DNA of 64,000 bases from Okamejei kenojei (taxonomy: Eukaryota): NCBI GenBank assembly GCA_035221665.1, contig CM069163.1:23002001-23066000 (forward strand), written 5' to 3'. The position numbers and the translations under genes are program-made. This document shows positions 1,713 to 53,331 of the stretch, piece after piece (within the stretch, counting starts at the first letter, position 1; every line of letters begins with the position of its first letter). The notes under the pieces are model-generated. The model had not been told where the DNA came from. It did no database searches and saw nothing but the letters and a program-made list of their open reading frames with translations.

Positions 1713-4700
1713 GAAAACAGGCGCTGAAACAATTGAAAGAATTAAAATTATTGAAGAAGCTTGATAAACAAAGGGCGGAGCAGGAGAAAACAATAGAGCA
1801 AATGAAAAAAAAAGAACTGAAAGGTACAAAAAAAGATTCAGAACATTGTAAATATAAGGGTATAATCTCTAAAATAACACAAAGCTGCCATATTTTCCAA
1901 TGTCTGCATATTTCTTTCTATTACCTCACAGTTGAGTGGATGGGCAGAAATTATGCTTCTTTTACGTTCATGTTATAGGAGTAGAATTAGGCCATTCGGC
2001 CTATCAAGAGTCTACTCCATTCAATCATGGTTGATCTCTGCCTCCTAATCCCATTTTCCTGCCTTCTCTCCATAACCCTTGACCGCTGTTCTAATCAAGA
2101 ATTTGTCTATCTCTGCCATAAAAATATCCACTGACTTGGCCTCCACAGCCTACTGTGGCAATGAGTTCCAAAGATTAACCACCCTCTGACTAAAGAAGTT
2201 CCTCCTCACCTCCTTTCTAAAAGAGCGCTCTTTAATTCTGAGGCTATGACCTCTGGTCCTAGACTCTCCCACCAGTAGAAACATCCTTTCCATATCCACT
2301 CTATGCCTTTCATTAGTTTGTAAGTTTCAATGAGGTCGCCCCTCAACTGTCTAAACTCCAGCAAGTAGAGGCCCAGTGCTTTTAAGTGCTTATCATATGC
2401 TAACCCGCTCATTCCGGAATAATTCTTGCAAAATCTCCTCTGGACCCTCTCCAGAGCCAGCACATCCTGCCTCAGATATGAGGCCCATATTTGCTCACAG
2501 TACTCCAAATGCGGCATGACCAGCACCTTATAGAACCTCAGCATTACATCTGAGTCAATATTATGGAGGAAAGTTGGGCATATAGCCCATCTACAGTGCC
2601 TTCCCTATGATTAATGTTGTAAACAAGGGGTGCAAAATGTAGTTATCAAGAAACATGCAATAATTTTTTGATTATGTCACTAAAATCACCTTTAACAGGG
2701 CCAATTGATGCTTGATTATTTTAAAAGAAATATTTGCAGATTTTCTGTCGTCTGATAATTGTAGTTTACAATCAAATGCTAGAGATATACATGACTCGCA
2801 GATGAAACATAAAGTAAATATTCTTTCATCTTAAGTAAAATTATTGTTGTAAAATAAGGTGTTTAGTTAAAGCAGTTTTTGATTCCTGTTGGAACTGATA
2901 AAGCTATCATCTTTTCCACAGCTTCAGCCAGCAGTACAGGACCAGCAATAAGAATGCTCTACCATTAATGACAATAACCTGAAGAAATGTTTAACATGTG
3001 GGAAAAGAAATCATAAAAATGTTATTCAGATTGTTTGTTCATATTTTTAAACAATTATACACAGGCTGAAAATTTTATATCTAAAACAAGTATATACAAT
3101 TTAAAATTTTACCCTTGGTAAATTCTTTACGAAGAATCCATTAAGGCCTTCACCATTCTGCATTAAGAATTATTAAGCAGTTCCGTAATACAGTCCACTG
3201 TGCCAATTAGCATCTATTTTATGATATATACTGATCATTTTTATATTTTATAGGTCGACTGCATACTATTAGTGTGGCATTACCAGGGTCCGTTCTGGAC
3301 AATGCCCAATCTCCAGAATTCAGGACATATTTGGCTGGACAGATAGCTCGTGCCTGTACGGTGTTCAGCGTGGATGAAATTGTAGTCTTTGATGAACAAG
3401 GAGAAGATGCAAAGTAAGATGACTCAGAAATATTAATTACTTGTACCTCATGGCGAACATGTACACATTTAATTATGCAATGTACAAGAAATGTTTGAAG
3501 GTTAGATGTTTCAAACTTTACAGTCTTTTGATTCCTAGTTATGAGGTAAAGTTTATTTCTAATTCATGTGGACTTAGAAAATAGCTGTGGTCTGATCTGT
3601 TTGTTTCAGCTTTCCTATTGTATGCATATATAAAACAGAACAAAGATACTGAAGGAGGCCATTCGCTGTCTTAAACCTGATTCTTTATATCTCTACTATT
3701 CCGTGCATAAAACATACTGACCTATGTTTTCCACATATCTCTTAATATAGATACCTAAAAATTCCCACCAGCTGATCCATATCACCACATAATCCATTAA
3801 TGTTTTGAGGGAATAGATACAGATCTTCACTAACCTTTGCATATTTTATTTAGAAGCTGCTTCCTGAATACTTTCATATATAGTATAGTTGTAATTTTAA
3901 TCTTTGTCTTGCATAACCCCACAGAAGAGATAGTTTTTCTGTATCATCCTCCTCCAATCTTTTTAACATTTTCAATAGCTTAGGACCAATCTTCCCTTGA
4001 TCTTTTAAACTCGGCATAGTTTCTGTGGATTAAGAAATAAAGAAGATTCCAGGGCAGTGCAAATGTTGACACTTATACTGATTGGAGCTAGCCATATGAT
4101 TATTAATTTGCACTTGCATAGCACTTTTATTAAGTGATAATCAACATGATGACATAAGATATGGTAGTGTTTGATTATTGAGAGTGCTTCATTGGAACCT
4201 ATCTTTGTAAATACAGAACTGTGGAAGGCGAATTTGGTGGAATTGGAAGGAAAGGACATGCCAATGTTCAACTTGCACGAATCCTGCAGTACCTTGAATG
4301 TCCACAGTGAGTCACTTTGGAGTAAAAGTGTGTTTTTAGTTCGGAAACAAGAGCAGCAAAACAGATCCTTTACTATTTATTTAAAAGTTATCTCAAAAGT
4401 GTTCCTCAGAAGTGAAATGAGACAAAAGTTAATATTGAGCCAAACAAAGAGGTATAAATAAGGGATACTAAAAGCTTACTCTAAATTTTGCGTGTTTTAA
4501 AGGACACGAGAGAGACAAACACCTTTAAGAAAATAATTCATGATCTTAGACATAGGAGGTAGCTGAAAAGTGTCCACATTTATTTTACATTAGATCATTT
4601 AGGACATTGCTGGAGAGAAATTGTTTGGTTCACATAGATCATTGGCCAAATCTTATTGCCCACAGTTTAATACATCAGACCCAGTTTCCCTCAGTGGGTC

Positions 4701-37000: not shown

Positions 37001-40000
37001 GAAAGTGACCATTGAGTTAATGAAGTGGACAATTAACATCTATACGATCAGATAATAGTATAAGATGAGACAAATAACATGTAAATAATTTGTACATATA
37101 CTCTCTGGTTCTGTTTTGTTTTCTTGACGAAGGGTAATTATGCCATGTTTCACAGCACATATACGGCTGGTTTTGTAATGTATTATATTATCTAATTAAT
37201 TTAAATGTACTATCAAAGAGAGGGATTGAGGGGGGCTCTCTCGGGTGGGGGGGAGATACCTGCTATTTATTTTTGTTTATAATTGTGATTCAAAAGTCCC
37301 AAAGTGGGAGTTAGAGCAACCTTACTGTAGTTGCAACCACACATAAGTGGGCTACCCAGGAGAGACCTAGTCACATCTCTTCGCCTTTTTACAAGGAGCT
37401 GGTACACCACCTAGTTTAGGGTGTCCAGATGGGTTTGTTAGGTAGGAAGTCCCTTTTTTCTTTATTGTTTTTTGGTCCTATGTGTAAAGTTTTATTGTAT
37501 ATTGATTTAATGATTTGTTTATTGTTTATTGATCTGTTAGTTTGGCAAATGTTTTTCATTGTTACATCATACCCTAGTAAATTGTATTTTGAGTACAGCG
37601 GATATTCACAGGCTAACCAGAGCAAGAAACAAAAATGGTATAGAAAGCAACTAGTAGATCACACCACGTGGGATAATGACTAATTTAAAGATAGTAAGTT
37701 ATAATGTCCACAGTTTAAATCACCCCATAAAGAAGAGAAAAATTCTGAGCCAATTCAAAAATTTAGGATGTGGAGTTGCATTGATTCAGGAAACGCCTGG
37801 TGGAAAAGGAACATAAAAAGCTTAGAAGAGAGTGGGTTGGTGAGGTATTCAGTGCCTCCTATGGGAAAAGGAGAGGAGTGGCTATTCTTTTCAATAGAAA
37901 TGTAGTTTTCTCTGTGGAAAAACTACTTCAAGATACATTGGGGAGATATGTAATGGTATTGGTACAATAAGTGGGATGGTAGTATCGATTATAAATATTT
38001 ATGCACCAACGGAAGATGATTACTCTTTCTTTAGAGACATTGCAAATATAATTGCAGAAAATGCCAAAGGTATGATAATACTAGGTGGTGATTTCAATGC
38101 GGTCCTTGATGGGAGGTTGGATAGATTACCAGATGAGTACAACCAAACAAAAAAACCCAAAATATTAAATAATATGCTAGGGGAGTTAGGATTAGTAGAC
38201 TCATGGAGATATAAAAATCCAAGAGGGAGGGAATTATAGTTTATTTTCGAACGTGCACGGGAGCTACTCACGTATAGACATGATTTGTGTTCTCAAACAA
38301 TATACATATAAAGTGGTAGATTGTAAAATTGGTTCAATAACAATCAGTGACCATGCGCCCATAATCCTTACCTTGGAGTTAGGAACTGAAAAGAGTTTTA
38401 AATATTGGAGAGCAAACATCTCTTTACTGACAGATAATGTAACGACACAGGAAATTAGGAATTGTATCAAAGAGTATTTTGACCACAATGACAATAGTGA
38501 AGTAACATTATCCACGCTTTGGGACGGTGCAAAAGAAGTAATAAGGGGCAAAATGATTGAAATATCGAGTAGAGTAAGGAAGAATAGGTTGAAGAAGTAA
38601 TCTGACTTGGAAAGTAAAATAAAGATATTAGAAGTAGAACACAAAAATAACAATAGAAACACGAATTTGTTAAATGAACTAAAACATAAAAGACATGAGT
38701 TAGAAGAGCTTCTAACATTCTAGCTAAAGGAGCCCTTCGATTCTTAAATCAAAAATACTATGAGAAGGGAAATAGGGCTAGTCGCCTTCTGGCATTTCAG
38801 TTGCGTAAGGAGCAAGCTAATCGAGCAGTTTCTAAAGTTCTACACCCGATTTCTAGAAATTTAGTCTCTCAACCACGAGGAATCACAGAAGCGTTTGCAT
38901 CCTTCTATGAACAGTTATACGACTCTCCTGAACTCATAGATAAAGAGGAAAAGATCAGAACTTTCTTTTCTGGATTAAAAATGCCCTGCCTTTCTCAAGA
39001 AGAAGCGAGAAATATGACAACACAAATAGAAGAGCAGGAAATAAAAGTAATAAAAAAATTAAAGAACAACAAGTCCCCAGGGACAGATGGGATTCCAGGA
39101 GAGTTTTATAAATGTTTTGAGAACGAGCTTTCTCCAATTCTGGCTAGAGTCTATAATTATGCTTGGGCTGAAGGCAACCCACCGAGATCATGGGCCGAGG
39201 CTATAATCTCTGTTATTTATAAGGAAGGGAAGGATCCCACAGGATGTGAAGGATATAGACCGATAAGTCTCTTATGCAATGACTTAAAGATACTCAGTGC
39301 TATGTTAACTAAGAGAACTCAAAAAATTATCAAACAATTGATACATCCTGATCAAACAGGGTTCATACCAGGCAGACAAGGAGCTAATAATATTAGACGG
39401 GTCCTGAATATCATGACATGTGCAAAAAGGAAGCATCAGACGTCAATGCTATTAAGTTTAGATGCTCAAAAGGCTTTTGACAGAGTAGATTGGGTCTATC
39501 TTGAATATACACTAGATATAATGGGGTTCCACACAAAATGTATTAATTGGGTGAAAACATTATATTTAAATCCAAAGTCAAGAGTGAGGGTAAATGGATG
39601 TTGCTCTGAGTTGTCTTAATTAAAGAGGGGAGTTAGACAGGGAGGCAGTTTGAGTCCCCTGCTTTTTGACATGTTTAGAGCCGCTCGCAGAAACTATTAG
39701 GCAAGATGACTATATTGAGGGCATTAAAGATGATCCGGGGGGGGGGGGGGGGGGGGGGGGGGACACACAAAAAATTTCACTATTTGCAGATGATGTTATG
39801 ATCTATGTGAGTAATCCTATTTCCTCAGTGCCTCACCTAATACAAGTGTTACAGAAATATGGAGAAATATCGGGATATAAAATAAATGACTCAAAATCAG
39901 AAGTAATTATGCTGTCAGGTCTGTGGCCCTCGCAATTAAATGATCAGGTCAGGTTCCATTGGTCTCGGGAGGGTTTTAGATATTTAGGTATTGTCATCAC

Positions 40001-43000
40001 TTCCTCTATCACTGCATTGTATGAAGCTATTTATGGTAAATTACTCAAGAATATTAAGGTAGACATGCACAGATGGGATATTCTCCCTTTATCTTTAATT
40101 GGTAGAGTGGAAGTTGTTCGAATTAACATTTTGCCCCGACTGCTTTTCTTATTTCAATCTTTACCAGGAGGGGTCCCTGGCGCGGTATTCAAGGCGTTAG
40201 ACAAAGAGTTAACAAGATTTGTGGGACAAAATAAGAGACCCAGAGTCAGACTGAAGACACTGTTGTTATTAAAACAAAAAGGGGCCTAAATATGCCCGAC
40301 TTTAAATATTATTATTGGGCAGCGCAGCTGAAAACCTTGATAGCATGGTTAACGAACGATGAGGAAACGGGATGGTTGAAAATAGAACAAAATGCATGTC
40401 CTAGTATTGCCCTGGCTGGGCTCCCATTTCTAACTCAAGTAAATTGGAGGAAATTAAAAGTAGATAACGATTGGATTAAATTCATGATGAAAACGTGGTT
40501 AGCTATAAGATATCTAGAGCAATGAAGATAGCTGCTAGTCCCAATTTTATACCCAGCAAAATTGATAAGGGATTTAGAAACTGGGCAGATAAAGGGCTTA
40601 TTACTGTGGACCAGCATTTTTGTGGGGGAGTCTTGAAATCGTACGAGCACTTGCAGAATGAATTTGGACTGTCAGGGTCAGATTTCTTTAGGTTCCTCCA
40701 AATACGGCACTACTTACAGACACATGTAGATTGGGAGCAGATATGTAGATTACCATCAAATTTGGAAAATAGTTTCTTGATGACTATAGAAGGAGTGTTA
40801 TAAAATAATTTGATATCCCATTTATATCAAGGACTTCAAGACTATATAAAAGGAAATACTATAGAAACAAAACAGAAATGGGAATTGGAAATGAACATTA
40901 TTATTACAGATGAAACATGGGAAAGGACATGTCTCTTGGGCCATAAGCTGACAAGCAACCCCTCTTGGAGGGAGTTCGACTGGAAAATTAAAATGAGGGT
41001 ATTTAGGACCCCTTTAGTGTTGGCAAAATACAGTAACACCTCAAATTTATGCTGGAGACAATGTGGGAAAATCGGTGATCACACACATATTTTTTGGGAT
41101 TGTCCCAAATTGTACCAATAGTGGAGAGACATCCAGGTAGAGATTAAATTAATTCTGGGAGTGGATCTACCTTTGTAACCGACTTGTTTTGTATTAGGAG
41201 ATACTCCAGCAGCAACAGATATTCAAAATCAGAAATATTTGCTTGGGGTGATGCTGTTGATTTCTAAAAAGATGATAACAGTGCTGTGGAGAAAGGAAAT
41301 GCCACCAAATGTTCAACAGTGGAGGGAAAGATTGAAAAAATGTATACTTGATGGAAAGTATAACTGCTAAACTCCAGTTGAGGACCGATGCCTTTAATAT
41401 TACATGGAAACTGATACTTTTACAAATGCCAAGATTGATTAAGGATATGAATGGATGAGCTTGCTATGGTGCCTGTGAATAAGATGCTTCTATGATAGAA
41501 TGTTAAGAGGATCCGATGTGATGCAAATAGAGGTTAGGTCATTTGTATTTTGTCATTTTGCGATTGTCTTTTGTGTGTATCTTCGTTTTGCCTGTATGTG
41601 TATTTTGTTATGTCAATAAATGTGGAGTTCAAAAAAAAAGAAAAGAACCAGTTAATCAATTATCCCATTCGGACAAAATAGTGTACAAATGTTCATCACA
41701 ACACCGCCAAGTGGTTGTTCGTGTATTACTTTAATTTTGACTCATTCACGTGTGTCCAATCTTTCACCTTATTCTTTGTAGTATATGCATGTCCCTCCTC
41801 ATGACTCTCTTTGGTCAGTGCACTATCCCTCTCTGACCCCATATTTCGCTACACATAGTCTTATCTTTAAATACATTGAGCAAAATTCTCACACCACCAT
41901 TGTATGTGGAAACTTACTTTGAGTTTGTATCCAGACAGGGTGAGCATTCTCCGATGTGGGAAGCTGAGAATCTTTGGAGCTTTAGTTAGATCCTGAATAC
42001 GCACAACCTGGGGGACTAGAGTTAGAGGGAATATCAAAATCACACAATTAAAAAGCAATACAGTCTCTGTCATTTAATAATCCACACTTGTCAAGTTCAG
42101 TTGCCTACACTGGGCAAAGAGTGTTGATCAACTAGTATTGGCAGTGATTTCAAGGACGATGCTGTTGCTGTTAAGGCATTGAGCAAGATAATCCTGATAG
42201 CTTCATGGGTTTCTTGTTGCTGATTTGATGTCTATTAACTTCAGCTAGTCAGATTTCTGAGCAATTTCGATCAGCACTTCTGATTGCTCATTGGTGACCA
42301 CAGTTTATAGTTACACTGACTTTAATGCAGTGAAACAGGCCCATGCACTTCACAGACTTAAAGAAACATCATAAGGAAGACGAGAGAGGCAGAAATGCAA
42401 GGGATAATTCCAGAGGTAATGCTGAAGGCACAGCTACCTGTGCTGGACTAATTAAAGTGCTGCATGTGTAAGAGGTTCAGATTGGGTCAACTGAATGGAG
42501 GCAAGAGCAAAGAAGACATCAGGGATGGGAAGGTTTTAAACAAACTTCCACATCCTCTCTCTCTTTTCCGATTAATTCTTCATAGAGTAGGTTCTAACAG
42601 AAAAAAGTTCCTCATTCTGCTAATTGGACGTATAAATCAGAAGGCATCACTTTGTAAAAATATCACCTATACAGACAGAAATGATAATGGCTGTAGAATG
42701 TAGTATTAACATGATGTTCCATATAAAACTGTGAAAGACTGCCAGTCCCTAAAGTGGGTGTTTATTCACTGAAATCTTCACTGAATAATTTGTGCTGGAG
42801 ATGAACTACTTATAGGCTGGGTAAAGATCAACATACAACTCATACTCAATATACAGATGTTTATTGGTGTATTTTGTTTCTTTAAGTGAAGGCAGTAAAA
42901 TAGACATAAATCTTCAGTTGAATGAATTTTAAAAACATTTTTATAATCAGAAAGTGTGAGAGCTGAAGTCCACAACACTGACCATACATTGGATCCAGTA

Positions 43001-46000
43001 CTAAAGTATATGGAACTGATGCACTGAAATTCTGAGAACCATGTGCTGCAAACTGTATCTTCCCCTTTCCACTATCTACTGTACTCAAGATGTAATTGTT
43101 TGAATGTATGTATGGTACTGTATGTCTGATCTGTTTGAATTGCATGGAAAACATAGCTTTTCATTGTACTTCAATTCTCATTTACACTTTTATTGTACAT
43201 GACAATAAAAAACCTAAACCTAAAACTTGCTTCCAAGTTACCTGACCCAAACCTGACAGGTTCCAACTATTGTCAAGTTTGGGATTTCTGTACTGGCCAG
43301 GGGAGGTCAAATTTTATATTTTATACCCAAGTTGATCTCAAATACCTGTGGCATCATAAATCATAACTCGTACAGGGAAGGCTGAATTAGAAAGTTTTTT
43401 TGGGTCCAACATTAAACATACACTTGCTGAATCTTACCTGGCTTGCTGATGGTAATGGGCAGGCTGTAGTTAAATGTGCTGCGCTTTGCCTTCACTGGCA
43501 TGTCAGAGGGCATATAACCTGTAAGTAAAATACAATTATGTCTGTATCCTCATTGACACTTAACAGTGATATTTCCATTTACTGGTTCTTTATAGGTTTT
43601 TGTAGACTCAGGAACAGATACTTTCCCTCTGTTATCAGACTACTGAATGGTTCTCCCATAAGCTAGGGTTGCAGTACAAATCTTCCAACCCACCTCAATG
43701 CGGACACTGGACTTTTTCCTCTGTAACTGTAACACTACAATGCTGAAAACTATATTCTGCACTTTTCCTTTGCTCTAATGCCATCCTTTTTGTATGACTG
43801 GATTGTATCCGATCTAACTCGGTAGCACGCAAAAATAAAAACTTTTCATTGTATCGCGGTACACGTGACAATAATAAACCAGTACCATTCAGGAGCGGGT
43901 ATCTTTCCTGAGCAATAATGCTGTGCAGGGAGTTGAACACAAAACATTCCCAGGAATGCTGCACCAACAGAGGAGGAATACTGAGAGAGTGCCTCAGCGA
44001 CAGGGGATACAGTTTTCAAATAAGGTGTCAAATAAGGTGTCAAATCAGGGACTTGGCTGTCCTCCCAGCTCAATAGAGAAGATCCCACAACATCACTTCA
44101 GTGACTGCATTCATCCATTCCAGGAAACATCCTGGTGAATGAGTTGTTTCACCAGGAAGTTGCCTGGAAAGGATGAATGCAGTTACGAGGAGACTGGTTA
44201 GGCTGGGTAAATTCTGTTCGATGAGACAACAACTAGGGAATTATCTGATTGAGATATACAAAATATTGAAGATACTGATGGATAAATACAGAGAAATATT
44301 TTCGCTTAGCAGTGATATCCATGACAAAAGCATAAGTTAAAGGGCAAGTGATAGTAGACACAAGGAACTGCAGATGCTGGTTAACAGAAAACTGCTGGAG
44401 TAGCATCTCTGGAGAACATGGATAGGTAGCGTTTTGGGTCGGGACCCTTCTTCGGACTCCAAGAGATAGGAGATTTAAGGAAGAATATTTTCCATCCTAA
44501 ATTGTTTGAAATCTGACTATGAACATGAAAGATTTCCCAAGCAGCCTAGACCATCTTTATGCCTCAATAAACACTGAAATAAAAGATCTGTTGCTTTTTA
44601 TCACATTGTCATCTTGGTAGTCTGCTGGACGCAATATTCCTTCAAGATGTTGCCATAGGTTCACTCACATCCGCAAAGCCAGATGGGAGTTCAGCTTAGC
44701 ATCTAATATAAAAGATGGCAGCTGATAATGTAGCAGCCCCCCAATACTACACTCGGAGATCAAATGAACAGAGAAGAGAAAATGTAGATAGAAAATACAT
44801 ACATTCCTTTCCTTGTATTACATGCATATTTTTTGGTTTTTAAGCACAGAGTGCAATCAGTTTCTCCTTCCATCAGTTACCATGTTTGGTGCTGCAACGA
44901 AGTCTGAAATCCAACACCTGATAAATCTTTGCCTTGGGATCTTTCCTTGGGTCATATCCGAACCTCACCCAGAGACTTCGCCAGGGACCTGTAAGCTGTG
45001 AAAAAGAGCGGACAAGCATGAGGTAATGCATTTTGGAAGATCAAATCTTTCGTGGGACATACCAAGTAAACGGCAATGGCTTTAGGAGCATGGATGTACA
45101 GAGACTGGAGTGCAAGTTCATAAATGAAAATGGTGATATGAGTGAATAGTGTGATGAAAAAGGCATTTGGTGTGCTTGCCTTCATAGGCTGGGGACATGT
45201 TGCTGTTGTACAAAGTATTGGTCAGACAAGTACACTGTGTACAGTTCTGGTCACCATACGATATGGAGGATATGGTAGCAATAGAAAGTGTGCAGAAGAG
45301 ATTCACCAGGACGTTGTTTAGAATGGTGAGTTGTAGTTATAAGAGATTGAATAGGTTAGCTTTATACACATTGTAAGGTAGTAGGTTGAGAGTAGACCTT
45401 AGAGGTTTATAAGAATGTGAAGGGCACAGACAGTCTGTTGCTTTTTTCCAGGTCAGAGAAGCTCAGATTTAGAGGACATGGGTTTAAGGTGAAAGGGGAG
45501 AAATTTAAAAGACATCTTCTTCTTCTTGCACAGCCTAAAGTTGTCGGACAACTTGTTCTATTTGATCTATTTGTTTGTGCACGTCGGGTTGATTGCATTA
45601 GTCGAAACAGGGTGGACCATGTGAAGGTTGCAATCTCGCACCCCAAAGGACATCTGAGGGGTAGGCTTTTCACATAGAGGGCAGTGAATATCTGAAACAT
45701 CTGCCAAGAAGTGGTGGTGGAGGAAGATACAATTACAATGTTTAAAAGGGGTACAGGCATGTACTCGGATAGGAAAGGCATAGAAGGATAGTGGCCTAAT
45801 GCAGGCAAATGGGATTAGCATAGATGGACATCAAGGACAGTCGGCATGGGTGAGGTGGGCTGAAAGGCCTGATGGTGTGCTGTATGATGCTTTGTCGAGC
45901 ACCCTCTGTGACTCACCATATAATAGGCTACAAAAGGCAGCAGCAGCTTCAGCTTCTCTGGATGCACATTAATATTTGACTTAACTGCATTTCTGGACCA

Positions 46001-49000: not shown

Positions 49001-50759
49001 TGATTTTCTTCTTTTTCCTCTTGACCCGGAGTAGCATGTTGGTTGAGGGGAACCGGTTACCACACACAGGGTGGCAGTAAGGATCCTTTGGACGGAAGTG
49101 TAGTTCAAGTCTCCTGCTCGGATCAGCGTAAATCTATTCCAAAATAAACAGATTTTAAAGAATTATTATCATAAGCACCAGTTGGCCCTTCAGTAGATCG
49201 ATTATTTGAAAAATCAGAGGACAAGGTTTAGTGTAGCAGATGCTTTGCTCAATGTCAATTTGCTCAAACCTAAGCAAATATGTATACACTCCTGTGTTCT
49301 GTGGGATGATTTAGGGCTCATTTGAGATGGCAGATGCGCCAGCAATTAAAGAAAAACACATCTGGAATTCAATTTCCAATGTGCAACTCTCCCAGTAGGC
49401 AGACTAGATCTTTGCACTCAAATCAATGGATGCGATTTGAATGGCAAACATAACTCTAAAAGAGCCCCACCAGCGAGCCAAGTAACCTTGTCCCTAATTT
49501 CAGCACAGCAAGTGAAGGCAACTTTGTTTCACCTGTAAAACACAAAATGCTAGCGTAACAGCGGGTAAGACATCATCTATGGAGGACGTGGACAGGTGAT
49601 GTTTTCAGTCGGGATACTTCAGATTTCCGATCTGAGAGTGGAGCACAACTTCTTCACAGTAGGCATACTTTTAGAAGATTTAGAAGTGGAACAGTAAAAT
49701 GGAAACACAAGGAACTACAGATGCTGGAATCTTATATAGAACACAAAGTGATGGAATAACTCAGCGGGTCAGGCAGCACCTCTGGAGATTATGGAAAGCA
49801 TTTTGTTTTCTACAGATGCAATGTAGAAAGCATTTTCTCTTCGATAGATGCACTACAGAAGGCATTTTATCAGGATGTATCACAGCATGGTTCGGGAACA
49901 GCTCCATCCAAGACCGCAAAAAAATTGCAGAGCGTTGTGGACTCCAACTGCACTTCACGCTGCCTCGGCAAGGCCACCAGCATTATCAAGGACCAATCTC
50001 ACTCCGATCACTCCCTCTTCTCCCCTCTCCCATCAGGCAAGAGTACAGAAGTTTGGAAACACATACCTCCAGATTCAGGGACAGTTTATTCCCAGCTGTT
50101 ATCAGGCAGCCCCTCACACCAGCAAGAGTACAGTCTTGACCTCCCATCTACCGTTTTGGAGACCTTTGAACTATCTTTAATTAGACTTTATCTTGCACTA
50201 AATGTTGTACCCGTTTTCCTTTATTTGTACACGGAGGACGGCTTGATTGTTACCATGTATAAACTTTTCTTTGATTGGATAATACGCAACAACAAAAAAC
50301 TTTTCACTGTACCTCGGTACACGTGATAATAATAAACTAAACTAAGGGTCTCGACCCGACTAAGGGTCACCCATCCCTTTTCTCCAGAGATGCTGCTTGA
50401 CCCACTAAGTTGCTCCAGATCTCCGTGTTTAACTTCAGATTCGAGCATCTGCAGTTCTTTGCGCCTCCTTGTTGTGGCGAGAACCCGCAGGTTGGAGGGA
50501 GAGGTTAAGGCCACTCCTGGGGTTGAGTGGAGAAGGCCGGAGCGCCCCGACTCACCCGGGAGACCCCCTCCTCTCCGCCCAGCGTCTCCAGCATCTTCAG
50601 CGGGTCGCGGACCACCCCGGGGTACTCGGCGCACACCAGTCGCTTCTCGGCGTCAAAGTGCACTTTCACCGCCGTGGTCTGCAAACCGGCAAACTTGGCG
50701 GCGGAGCCCTGCTCCGGTGTGAGCTTCAGCACAGGCTCCGTCTCCATGACGGCCGCCAT
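34097..50759 (-). CDS. GTF3C5: General transcription factor IIIC subunit 5 (TFIIIC63), complete 11-exon CDS
   Basis: Minus-strand exons: 50759-50556 (RLVCAEYPGVVRD), 49133-48905 (RLELHFRPKDPYCHPVC), 48643-48445 (GMSDFQF...PPPIFSR), 46853-46658, 46021-45917 (IRPVWSRNAV), 44995-44881 (TGPWRSLWVRFGYDPR), 43518-43438, 42015-41918, 36738-36656 (LPPYRQMFYQLCDL), 35885-35743 (ERDGWCLPKTSD), 34248-34097 (acidic tail, ENEMETEILDYI*). All junctions are GT-AG. Confidence 0.96.
36130..36420 (+). mobile_element. tRNA-derived SINE
   Basis: ggtggcacagcggtagagttgctgcctcacagcgcc...gttcgatcc head; (ctaaa)n tail. Confidence 0.8.
36949..41639 (+). mobile_element. 5'-truncated, degenerate L1-clade LINE (APE + RT + C-terminal Zn finger), antisense in GTF3C5 intron 8
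   Basis: ORF2 fragments from ~37676: SYNV..., NIYAP, GGDFN, SRID, SDHAP, KSPGTDG, YRPISLL, QTGFIPGR, SLDAQKAFDRV, LFADD, FRYLG, CWRQC..H..HIFWDCP. AATAAA at 41615 then a poly-A tail. 12-bp TSD GAAAAGAACCAG at 36937-36948 and 41640-41651. Confidence 0.92.
45020..45890 (+). mobile_element. CR1 LINE 3' fragment containing a nested short SINE
   Basis: Degenerate CR1 RT C-terminus (FRGHGFKVKG) interrupted at ~45515-45645. Confidence 0.75.
47836..48147 (+). mobile_element. CR1 3' end
   Basis: Highly similar to 6997-7293; ends in tttctatg repeats. Confidence 0.85.
49830..50340 (+). mobile_element. Rex1/Babar-type LINE 3' end
   Basis: RCTTEGILSGCITAWFGN, KATSIIKDQSHSDHSLFSPLPSGK, RFRDSLFPAVIR; ends with an aataaactaaactaa tail. 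Confidence 0.75.
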
Positions 50760-50864
50760 GGCAGCATCTGGGCCCACGCCTAACTACGTCCGGCCTACAA
50801 CTAGGGGGAACAAACGGTCACGATGTGGGTTCCGCTTCACATTAACTTATATACTTGGGCTTGA

Positions 50865-50987
50865 GAGTTTCTGGTTAAACTATGGGCAGAGGTGCCTCCA
50901 AAATAGTACTATTCACTGAGGGGCGCAGCCCCGAAGTGAATAGTACTATTTGGAGGCACCGAGGCCCATAGTTTAAACCAGAAACTC
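50865..50987. repeat. Imperfect ~123-bp palindrome (hairpin 1) at the left end of the Crypton-like element
   Basis: gagtttctggttaaactatgggc..ggtgcctccaaaatagtactattcact-ga-ggggc-gca-gcccc-ga-agtgaatagtactatttggaggcacc..gcccatagtttaaaccagaaactc. Confidence 0.92.
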
Positions 50988-51057
50988 GAAATAAGGCCAA
51001 GGATATTTGTTTTATATTTGGGATCAAACATTTACAAGAATAATTGCTTACCTTAAG

Positions 51058-51265
51058 TTGTTTACAAATTTACATCGCGCGCTATACTCCCGAGTGAAGT
51101 AGAGAAATTATACGCAAGCGGGAGAGCGGGAGATTTTCCGAAAATGCCCTTTCAGCAAGATCGCCCGCTGAAAGGGCATTTTCGGAAAATCTCCCGCTCT
51201 CCCGCTTGCGTATAATTTCTCTACTTTACTCGGGAGTATAGCGCGCGATGTAAATTTGTAAACAA
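51058..51265. repeat. Near-perfect palindrome: two 99-bp arms, 10-nt loop (hairpin 2)
   Basis: Arm 51058-51156 is the reverse complement of 51167-51265 with one mismatch; loop is aagatcgccc. Confidence 0.95.
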
Positions 51266-51290
51266 GTTCAATCGTCTGCTCGATACGAAG

Positions 51291-52577
51291 ATGGCGGCGT
51301 CCAGTACTAGGCGATTTGGTCAGTTTACTGACGAAGATTTGGATGACTTTATTACTTCAGTGGATAGTGAAAACACGCAAAAACAAATCAAATATGGAAT
51401 GTCAGTTTTTCGGCAATTTTGTTCGGAGATGGGAGTTAAAATTGAGCAGATTTTAGGCCTCGAAGACCTTGATGGAATCTTGTCACAGTTCTACGCTGGA
51501 GCGCGAAACAAGAAGGGAGAGCTGTACACGAAGAAGTCAATTCAAGCGATTCGGTTTGCGCTTCAACGCCATTTTATGAAAACCAGAGGAGTGGACATTG
51601 TGAAAGCTGAGCAATTTTCTCGTTCTAACAAGATTTTTAAGGCTCTTCTTGTAAAACTGAAGACCAGCGGTAAGGCCAATGTAAAGCATTACCCCCCTAT
51701 CACTAATGATGATATGGCACTTATCCAAGCCAGTCTCAATTTAAACACGGCTGTTGGTCTGCAAAGAAAGGTGTTTCTAGATACAATGATATACTTTGCA
51801 AACCGTGGAATGGAAAATGTGAGACAGATGAAAGGTGAGGATTTTGTTCTTCATGTGGAAGGTGACATTGAATACTACACTCTTCGTGACATGCATACCA
51901 AAAACCATCAAACTGATGAAGAGGAAAGTCAAGGAGGACAAATGCATGCTCTCAAAGGAAACCCAAGGTGCCCTGTTATGAACATGAAAAATTACTTATC
52001 CAAATTAAACCCTCTCTGTGAGTGGATGTGGCAGAGGCCAAAACAGACTGTTTCTGTTAAAGATGGACCGTGGTACGCCAATTCACCTTTGGGGAAATGC
52101 ACTCTCGCTAACATGACAAGTGTCATCTGTGAAGCTGCTGGTTGTTCAAAACATTATACGAATCATTCTTTGCGAGCAACTAGCATCACTTTGCTAGACC
52201 ATGCAGGACATGCATCTAGAGATATTATGTCTGTATCAGGTCACCGTTCTGAGACCTCGATAAAGAATTATGCACGTACCAGTGAGCATACCAAGCGCCA
52301 GATGTCTGACACCCTGTCTGCAATTCATCCTGATCAACCATCAACATCAGATGATAAAGAAAATGCTGGCATTGATGGTGATGGTGCAGATTTTGCGATT
52401 GATCTATCAAACAGTCAACTGAACGTTAAAGAGATTGTCGATCAACATCCACAACTACCACAGTCAGCACAACCACAACCGGAGCGGATTTTTAGAACAA
52501 TGAACATGAACCAGCAAAATCTCCAGCCCCATCAATACCATTTCCATGGCTGCGTTGTAAATTTTTACAACAATTAG
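51291..52577 (+). CDS. Crypton-type (DUF3504-like) tyrosine recombinase, intronless, 428 aa
   Basis: Uninterrupted ORF with a strong Kozak context (aagATGG). Tyrosine-recombinase catalytic set: R172 (FANRGME), K204 (TKNH), H292-x-x-R295 (TNHSLRAT), H318 (SGHRS), Y327. Also RCPV, WY..PLG and a C-terminal F.GC.VN motif typical of CryptonA/KCTD1/ZMYM/QRICH1-type domains. Confidence 0.9.
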   Translation: MAASSTRRFGQFTDEDLDDFITSVDSENTQKQIKYGMSVFRQFCSEMGVKIEQILGLEDLDGILSQFYAGARNKKGELYTKKSIQAIRFALQRHFMKTRGVDIVKAEQFSRSNKIFKALLVKLKTSGKANVKHYPPITNDDMALIQASLNLNTAVGLQRKVFLDTMIYFANRGMENVRQMKGEDFVLHVEGDIEYYTLRDMHTKNHQTDEEESQGGQMHALKGNPRCPVMNMKNYLSKLNPLCEWMWQRPKQTVSVKDGPWYANSPLGKCTLANMTSVICEAAGCSKHYTNHSLRATSITLLDHAGHASRDIMSVSGHRSETSIKNYARTSEHTKRQMSDTLSAIHPDQPSTSDDKENAGIDGDGADFAIDLSNSQLNVKEIVDQHPQLPQSAQPQPERIFRTMNMNQQNLQPHQYHFHGCVVNFYNN

Positions 52578-52695
52578 CCATGCATAACAAAAAACAAACA
52601 GGATGTAAATATTGTAAATAGATGTTGAAACAATGGTTTGACTTTTCAAGAAGTTTTCCCTGACTGTTTATGTTTACACTTGGATTTCATTGAAT

Positions 52696-52882
52696 TTATT
52701 CTTGTTTAAATGTTTGATCACAAATATAAATTATTCTTGTTTAAATGTTTGATCGCAAATATAAAACAAATATCCTTGGCCTTATTTGGAGTTTCTGGTT
52801 AAACTATTGCCCGGGCAGGTGAAATTATACGCAAGCGGGAGAGCGGGAGATTTTCCGAAAATGCCCTTTCAGCGGGCGATCT
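52696..52882. repeat. Right subterminal repeats of the Crypton-like element
   Basis: 35-bp tandem duplication at 52696-52730 and 52731-52765. 52729-52807 is an inverted copy of ~50968-51045. 52821-52882 is an exact 62-bp inverted copy of 51158-51219. Confidence 0.92.
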
Positions 52883-53200
52883 CCCGACGAAAGCGGCAGA
52901 GTTGGAGTCACTGCACTTGTCGAGACGAGAGGTGGCGCTGTAGCCGTGGCAGCGCGAGAGTTTCCCGTTACATGCACGCGGAGCTGTGACATGATTTCCC
53001 GACATAGTAAATGCTATTTACAAAATGTCGTCATAAAAGTGATGTCATTTTGTAAATAGTACATCGTTGGAGTGTCAGCGTGCCAACATTCTAAAATAGT
53101 TGAAATTATATCAAATCACGTGACGCTCTCTCGACCAATCGCTGGAGGATAAATGTTTGATCCCGAATATAATAACTTATATTCAAGTACTATAATTATT

Positions 53201-53331
53201 GTCTGAAGAAGGGTTTCGGCCCGAAACGTCGCCTATCTCCTTCGCTCCAGAGATGCTGCTGCACCCGCTGAGTTTCTCCAGCATTTTGTGTACCCTCGAT
53301 TTTCCCGCATCTACAGTTCCTTCTTTAAAAC
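53201..53331 (+). mobile_element. Penelope-derived short retroposon with hammerhead-like core and TSD
   Basis: Starts gtCTGAAGAagggtttcggcccGAAAcgtc; 12-bp TSD actataattatt at 53189-53200 and 53332-53343. Confidence 0.8.

Follow-up and report, generated by a model that had tools for sequence, protein, structure and literature searches.

A young, site-polymorphic CryptonA-type transposon in Okamejei kenojei, likely acquired horizontally and likely moving as a folded single strand

A 64,000-nucleotide (nt) stretch of the Okamejei kenojei genome (GenBank assembly GCA_035221665.1, contig CM069163.1, positions 23,002,001 to 23,066,000 of the forward strand; the window, to which all coordinates refer) carries at 50849..53172 (plus strand) a Crypton-type transposon encoding a tyrosine recombinase (YR). 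The element is probably a very recent, site-polymorphic insertion of a young CryptonA-type family, likely acquired horizontally and likely moving as a folded single strand. The wider proposition, that integron cassettes have their eukaryotic counterpart in animal Cryptons (an active vertebrate family, its strand closed on an internal template, inserted by one strand into ATA-N8-TAT and recently passed between a marine non-elasmobranch and this host, the copies being 99% identical), we regard as evenly poised. An intact Crypton reading frame in a fish is by itself of a known kind: published work reports an autonomous CryptonA-1_OL in medaka and an intact YR frame in chimaera (PMC3212892), as well as Crypton families in salmon and the human Eulor5/6 (PMC5753468), so that the rarity in jawed vertebrates asserted in a preliminary description of the window was overstated. 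What sets this family apart is the end structure, the target rule and the one-sided count of junctions, from which a mechanism differing from the published model can be put forward, and further the empty allele and a 99% identical copy outside the host. The preliminary description had noticed neither the stretch inside the element that is complementary to its joined ends, nor the consensus of the target, nor the one-sidedness of the junctions.

Recombinase and copies of the family

The element has a single open reading frame (ORF), intronless and free of stops, of 428 amino acids (51291..52577, plus strand); its 2.3 kb hold no reverse transcriptase, RNase H, gag or DDE gene. The catalytic set is complete (R172, K204, H292, R295, H318 and Y327, as first placed), giving the R-K-H-R-H-Y residues of a tyrosine recombinase; in a 36-sequence alignment H292, R295 and H318 are invariant and R172, K204 and Y327 at least 90% conserved. 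In Pfam the ORF matches DUF3504 [PF12012, expectation value (E) 4.6e-7, 30.5 bits, cut-off 29.7]. A phage integrase match (E 9e-6) falls just under its cut-off and QRICH1 is also under cut-off; beyond these three no Pfam domain is found in the ORF at E 0.1, and GCR1_C is absent. A sequence search of the PDB gave merely a weak integrase match (E 0.34), and the fold was settled by a fold search instead. An AlphaFold2 model built from a 33-sequence alignment [mean predicted local distance difference test score 76, residues 350-412 disordered] has Cre as its best fold match [E 8e-8, template modelling score 0.52 by query and 0.67 by target], and the matches ranking after Cre are other tyrosine recombinases, among them the QRICH1 chain 9hjt_H. 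By sequence and model the ORF encodes a Cre-fold, DUF3504-type recombinase. The window element is a Crypton-like YR transposon, and here the preliminary description, which would have been refuted by the lack of a YR fold, is borne out by both the DUF3504 match and the Cre-fold model. The protein has the marks of the CryptonA group, a DUF3504-type YR without GCR1_C in an animal host; it groups with the YR exon of ATF7IP, for which a Crypton origin has been proposed (PMC3212892).

A 22-mer from the left end has 123 exact matches in the genome, against 0 for its reversed control. From these matches 100 loci, some overlapping (L001-L060, L091-L130), were sampled and yielded 97 distinct left junctions and 85 two-ended copies, the majority of sampled copies being internal deletions (0.4-1.2 kb). 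With 40 of 885 candidates scored, there are at least four full-length copies at 99-100% (subfamily A, that of the window) and a second subfamily (B) at ~95%. A dispersed multicopy element with fixed ends and with neither a reverse transcriptase nor a DDE gene is what is expected of a Crypton. Set against the window copy over the 1287-nt ORF, the remaining full-length A copies, three in number, show 0, 0 and 1 substitutions and, respectively, 1, 2 and 8 small indels. Common to eight B copies are 24 substitutions together with an in-frame insertion of 12 nt, and seven of the eight have no more than two substitutions beyond these. Among the 12 full-length copies in the assembly the ORF is unbroken in the window copy only. 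Because they comprise many indels with almost no substitutions, the frameshifts of the sister copies resemble long-read error, and a B-type contig from sequencing run X10 has the 24 differences and the 12-nt insertion with no frameshift. This run is labelled ‘RNA? (probably DNA)’ and was taken as RNA, its GTF3C5 contig leaving the window at the GT of the exon; strand and level are not readable from its contigs, missing cover of a palindrome specific to A was not counted as silence, and depths were not read as copy numbers. The family is young and recently mobile, as had been proposed, on the grounds of the 123 left ends, the near-zero substitutions in the ORF and the empty allele described below.

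The two subfamilies differ in layout. In B the ORF points to the hairpin end of the element, as it does in three further host families (C, D and E) and in an element from marine-metagenome run X13, whereas in A the ORF cassette is inverted with duplications at both breakpoints. This inversion explains the palindrome with 102-nt arms at 51055..51268, which is found in subfamily A only and is its probable by-product, and the repeats at 52693-52882. The latter comprise a second, partial copy of the internal complementary region (see below) 3' of the ORF at 52693..52807 (plus strand; I3, I7, D2, D12), an inversion remnant in its subfamily B position, and a 62-nt inverted duplicate of 51158-51219 at 52821..52882 (plus strand; I2, D3), probably the second breakpoint. 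Flipping between the junction and the internal copy, of the Flp/2-micron type, was set aside as the A inversion breakpoints do not lie at the junction. Measured against B and the X13 element, 16 codons of the A protein have changed non-synonymously and 5 synonymously (without selection 22% would be expected to be synonymous), and four residues are deleted. At all 16 changed sites the related protein P0001 carries the non-A residue, as does the Diadema protein (see below) at most, and the H134Y change falls in a column that is H in 12/12 next relatives. The window copy's own autonomy appears doubtful, because its first 7 nt are lost, its ORF cassette is inverted and it carries 16 derived amino-acid changes including H134Y; of the earlier claim of an intact, autonomous copy, the intact ORF stands and the autonomy is in doubt. 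A-type copies did move, perhaps with the B enzyme, the uninverted subfamily B being the more likely source of enzyme. Locus L032 and 18 similar loci form a 453-nt non-autonomous family, which has in common with the marine-metagenome element a 16-nt insertion near the complementary region; the insertion is absent from full-length A and B copies and points to a third, perhaps older, parent.

Ends, target and folded junction

The empty allele of the window insertion is present in run X2, another sample bearing the same species label, where a contig passes directly from 50842 to 53173, the 10 letters at the joint matching equally well on the left or on the right. The insertion site is therefore polymorphic. 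The 10-nt direct repeat TAACTTATAT (50843-50852 and 53173-53182), which like the palindromes lies where the preliminary description had placed it, had been read as the terminal direct repeat of the element; it occurs once at the X2 empty site, and is therefore a duplication of the target. It consists of the duplicated host target TAACTT and the shared microhomology ATAT. The left copy of the spacer TAACTT (50843..50848, plus strand) is present once in the empty site and extends to a 10-nt match with the ATAT of the element; the right copy, TAACTT-A-TAT (53173..53182, plus strand), fits the ^N6-W-TAT half of the target consensus. Across the family TATACAA-ATATACTTGG stands at 84 of the 97 left junctions and the right ends have the form CCRAATATAA; the family ends are TATACAA-ATATAC…AATATAA; in the window copy the canonical first 7 nt, TATACAA, are missing and TAACTT stands in their place. 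No constant terminal direct repeat is found among the family copies, which share only ATA at the junction arms. This agrees with the reported absence from animal Cryptons of terminal repeats, of which an identical 4-6-bp direct form defines CryptonF and CryptonS (PMC3212892).

The flanks define the target. At left-flank positions -4 to -2 A, T and A occur in 86%, 95% and 96% (n = 78), with no C at -1; target position +1 is T or A in 98%, and +8 to +10 are T (96%), A (96%) and T (81%) (n = 72). The consensus is the same after dropping AT-runs. TA stands at +8,+9 in 74/78 right flanks (background 0.12), and the motif is present in 56 of 64 reconstructed targets, its background being 0.9 per strand-kb. 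The target is ATA-N8-TAT (ATA-D^N6-W-TAT), opened one base inside the 8-nt spacer. A cut one base inside an 8-nt spacer is the geometry of Cre on loxP. The window copy itself holds a target-like site, ATAG^TAAATG-C-TAT, cut after 53007 and followed by a palindrome with 20-nt arms (53004..53059, I12), and this site receives other copies (right flanks of L004, L029, L113, L117 and L127). At L098 (G000:C8:3710560-3717560) and L108 a single simple repeat of the (TATAG)n type, which amounts to target motifs in series, has received several independent copies. In a minority class (L003, L031, L049, L101, L106), as in the window copy, the right end is exact and the left junction contains 6-17 nt copied from the target. 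What looked like long duplications of the target at L018 and L021 were judged by eye to be host tandem repeats.

The junctions are one-sided. With single-base run variants counted as canonical, the element spacer is on the left in 79 of the 85 two-ended copies, 74 of which have the 6-nt host spacer on the right while 5 are followed by another copy; these head-to-tail junctions give the junction predicted for joined ends. Six copies, the window's included, have another, mostly target-derived, left sequence. The element spacer on the right before host DNA is found in 0/85. Exchange of one strand is suggested because two exchanges between unlike spacers should yield both products after replication.

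The left part of the element is an imperfect terminal hairpin of ~158 nt (50849..51006, plus strand), the outer arm of which is the left end. A 5-nt spacer, TTGTT (51007..51011, plus strand), follows, then that half of an internal complementary region (51012..51034, plus strand; inverted repeat I9) which abuts the hairpin and is the reverse complement (22/23 nt) of the right end of the element (53150..53172, plus strand). The internal region as a whole can pair with both ends, as in DIRS1. The natural head-to-tail junction at L004 is predicted to form a single stem of ~215 nt (-88 kcal/mol, z -18.9, 0/200 shuffles), in which the 7-nt TATACAA faces TTGTT and 9 nt on one strand and 7 nt on the other lie between the ATA and TAT arms; in the target the figure is 8. 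A folded site with an unpaired central spacer, the character of the integron attC, is thus predicted, with 7 nt opposite 5 nt.

The same layout recurs with different arms in families C, D and E (52, 41 and 38% core identity): the start of the element is complementary to sequence lying directly ahead of a 150-175-nt hairpin at the 3' side, and the internal spacer is 2 nt shorter than the terminal spacer. The junction of family E has a predicted fold of -65.8 (z -17.2); a stretch other than the intended family E junction gave z -0.6, an unplanned negative. In the window family, deletion derivatives retain at least 177 nt of the left end, and among 42 distinct breakpoints none is under 170 nt and 29 lie between 170 and 340 [list drawn by hand, each family's repeats being entered a single time and neither full-length copies nor the second unit of L118 included]. 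The three additional families are young as well (L131, L132; L133, L134, L142, L143; L135-L140, L144-L150), and several of their copies have open frames of 405-539 amino acids. Ends of D and E are also found tandem-joined, and internal GGGGAATAT-N6-ATATTCCCC palindromes of family E (L030, L095, L140, L146) are landing sites for copies of E and of the window family.

Relatives outside the host genome

The closest named relative of the window protein is XP_071480598 of the sea urchin Diadema antillarum (75% identity overall, 292/344 or 85% in the core). A quick tree of 68 proteins groups the window protein with P0001 and gives the Diadema protein as their sister [98% in the Shimodaira-Hasegawa-like approximate likelihood ratio test (SH-aLRT)] within an echinoderm-rich marine clade. 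Run X13 contains a 2098-nt contig that spans the whole element with both ends, the TATACAA start and the B layout; it has 11-12 differences over 1457 nt from the X10 B-type contig, and is thus ~99% identical to the uninverted subfamily. The element has a depth of 16 in X13, where neither the host flank nor the host short interspersed nuclear element (SINE; 53201-53300) has any depth (7 records), whereas the SINE bin reaches a depth of 2e7 in X2, ~49,000 times that of the ORF there.

Changes in the host are near neutral, with 22 non-synonymous and 8 synonymous codons (22% synonymous expected), and P0001 keeps the non-host residue at all 22 non-synonymous sites. Six amino acids differ between host and X13, and at all six X13 has the P0001 residue. 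Such a pattern would be expected if the element had entered the host and selection on it had then relaxed, though a third donor may be involved. We consider a recent horizontal transfer, one of the origins suggested in the preliminary description, very probable on the strength of the X13 copy, the Diadema relative and the P0001 residues. The contigs compared came from runs X2, X10, X13 and X16, out of X1-X21. Two more runs of the X13 study share 25-30% of words. Run X16 (organism B), with short end pieces and host-type SINE at low depth, is uninformative on transfer, a single-protein scan of metagenome contigs gave no match, and five weak matches in a viral-contig scan, confined to the H-x-x-R region, were not used. 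Family C is identical to protein P0014 at 274/337 positions, possibly a second transfer. For a protein of the marine catfish Neoarius graeffei (P0097) the identity is 56% across 85% of the query, and for a 226-amino-acid protein (P0100) it is 88% across half; the clade reaches other hosts.

Mechanism, alternatives and host neighbourhood

In the proposed mechanism one strand of the element would be released, and both of its ends would pair with the internal complementary region and be held there for joining into a circle. The joined ends would form a long hairpin presenting ATA-(9 nt/7 nt)-TAT, which would imitate, though with mismatch, the ATA-8 nt-TAT of the double-stranded target. The recombinase would then exchange the hairpin strand alone, cutting after ATAD in both partners, so that TATACAA from the element would end up at the left junction and the 6-nt spacer of the host at the right one. 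Replication or repair would make the second strand and might occasionally copy the target into the left junction, as in the window (TAACTT). The donor may retain a copy on its other strand, in which case copy number would rise. A one-strand, integron-like exchange of this kind is moderately probable in our estimate.

In the recombination of attC with attI one strand of a folded site is exchanged with a double-stranded partner and replication resolves the junction (PMC3458562), attC having an unpaired central spacer (PMC2727003); the window family would share these features. Integrons differ in being bacterial, and their attC is contiguous, whereas the site of the window family would form after the ends are joined and the enzyme is carried in the mobile unit. 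DIRS1-type elements (PMC8969392, PMC13465315) share the internal region whose halves pair with the element start and end, as well as integration by a YR, but the window element lacks their reverse transcriptase, RNase H, gag and long inverted terminal repeats. CryptonA elements of animals (medaka CryptonA-1_OL, sea-urchin Crypton-1_SP; Kojima and Jurka, 2011, PMC3212892) have the same single YR/DUF3504 ORF without GCR1_C, many short non-autonomous derivatives, marine deuterostome relatives and the grouping with the ATF7IP YR exon; the window family differs in its resolved ends, target and internal complement, in being very young and polymorphic, and in its elasmobranch host. CryptonF-1_cRei of Chlamydomonas, among the first active Cryptons (PMC9977147), is likewise YR-only, with a sequence-specific target, rising copy number and insertion near gene starts. 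Its donor and target motifs are matching and near-identical (CACCG/CAYCG), whereas the spacers of the window family differ in sequence and length and the arms are conserved. In the literature searched, outside which lie Repbase entries and supplements, no description of a Crypton hairpin, of a complementary region or of an elasmobranch Crypton family was found, and the term ‘hairpin’ does not occur in the searched part of the 2026 CryptonA paper (PMC13465315). Termini are listed in Additional file 1 of PMC3212892, which may affect how novel the end structure is.

The one-sided junctions can be read in other ways. The published Crypton model, in which a double-stranded circle undergoes two strand exchanges with a similar target and biased repair follows, the hairpin being an array of binding sites or a regulatory structure, fits the active CryptonF in Chlamydomonas (PMC9977147), and heteroduplex repair could produce the target-type left sequence of the six exceptional copies. 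CryptonF needs a near-identical target motif; the donor spacer of the window family has 7 nt, the target 6 nt and the two little sequence in common; the reciprocal product, which exchange of one strand would not be expected to give, is missing from all 85 copies, and the 2-nt asymmetry recurs in four host families. We hold the two-strand model to be unlikely, while giving it appreciable weight. The complementary region could instead serve to join the ends of a complementary DNA as in DIRS1, if an RNA copy were reverse-transcribed in trans by a DIRS-type retrotransposon. The geometry does equal that of the DIRS internal complementary region, the 5' half pairing with the element start and the 3' half with the end (PMC8969392), the ORF is intronless, and a B-type contig occurs in a run resembling RNA. 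Yet the element has neither reverse transcriptase nor long terminal repeats, and nested, deleted and inverted copies moved with precise ends, each of which would need a full-length, end-to-end transcript; movement through RNA is accordingly quite improbable.

As to origin, Cryptons are old in vertebrates (PMC3212892), the host has a domesticated YR exon in ATF7IP, and the near-identical marine copy might be shark or ray DNA in the water. Vertical inheritance of this kind is nevertheless improbable, as X13 has the element yet none of the very deep host SINE, and the vertically inherited ATF7IP YR shows 88-90% identity within elasmobranchs, falling to 65-73% for birds, turtles and a frog, whereas the mobile YR is 85% identical to a sea-urchin protein. 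That the window copy is a newly domesticated gene under the GTF3C5 promoter would suit the sole unbroken ORF among 12 full-length copies and its head-to-head position with that gene. Against this, a second sample has the empty site, sister copies are broken largely by 1-nt indels and have next to no substitutions, as long-read error would give, the X10 B-type ORF has no frameshift, and the changes in the A lineage (16 non-synonymous against 5 synonymous) are near neutral. The single-copy, fixed and syntenic state under purifying selection that characterizes domesticated DUF3504 genes is not what is found, and we consider domestication, which the preliminary description had entertained, extremely improbable; an old single-copy host gene, the outcome it had named as fatal to a mobile element, is at odds with the multiple copies and the empty site.

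Several points weigh against the scheme of a horizontally acquired CryptonA-type family moving as a folded strand. The circle, the single strand and the enzyme activity are deduced, and biased repair of a two-strand product could also yield one-sided junctions. Among metagenome relatives (57 of 80 loci examined for the 3' hairpin, 23 tested for the 5' complement) the hairpin is present in 25/57, most opening on an A-A/G-CA-A/G core, and a 13-nt 5' complement with at most one mismatch in 9/23 (shuffle p <=0.02), these nine amounting to ~3 independent families and one doubtful case; two further relatives have a 5' complement with two mismatches (p 0.02), and none is found in 12/23, several of which have little upstream sequence. 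At L118 one tandem unit, of 421 nt, is without the half complementary to the right end. Covariation between A and B amounts to one position (32 + 20 copies paired), with a G-G mismatch there in 19 short copies and a few others, and the z-score of a palindrome shows merely that it is palindromic. CryptonA membership is putative, the tree is a quick one with SH-aLRT only, and an absence cannot be proved from the X13 contigs.

For animal Cryptons the defining paper gives no terminal repeats, and the sole model of how they move assumes a double-stranded circle and a matching target. In the window family the enzyme seems intact, the ends are known exactly, the target has a consensus, one empty allele is documented, and the pattern of junctions allows the strand and position of the cut to be predicted. 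If the scheme is true, folded single-strand recombination of the integron kind would exist in animals, with a small enzyme, no need of spacer homology and almost no target damage, and the near-identical marine copy would mark a very recent transfer to or from a cartilaginous fish.

The insertion lies 83 nt upstream of the start codon of the host gene GTF3C5 (Tau95), on the opposite strand and head to head, and its polymorphism makes it a natural test of effects on a host gene. The first coding exon of GTF3C5 is at 50556..50759 (minus strand; Tau95_N E 6.5e-4, under cut-off), where the contig leaves at 50556 beside GT, and a Tau95 exon match over cut-off is found at 44903-45037. The remaining stop-free frames of at least 200 codons in the window are three fragments, two resembling long interspersed nuclear elements (LINEs) by eye, in keeping with the earlier remark that other transposon ORFs here are broken or short; broken LINE-like reverse transcriptase fragments, likewise judged by eye from the translation, lie at 38699-40286 (plus strand).

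Domesticated DUF3504 genes (KCTD1, KIAA1958, ZMYM2/3/4, QRICH1 and the ATF7IP exon) share the DUF3504/YR fold with the window protein but are single-copy conserved genes, and the host ATF7IP YR exon is a separate locus, 35% identical. That exon (L141, G000:C37:4742003-4749046, ORF 2836-4086, minus strand) retains R, H-x-x-R, H and Y. The 88-90% identical elasmobranch homologues are those of Heterodontus, Chiloscyllium and Narcine, and those of birds, turtles and frog are annotated as ATF7IP isoforms. Judged from its residues, the ATF7IP-linked YR may be a catalytic domesticated recombinase, as proposed in PMC3212892.

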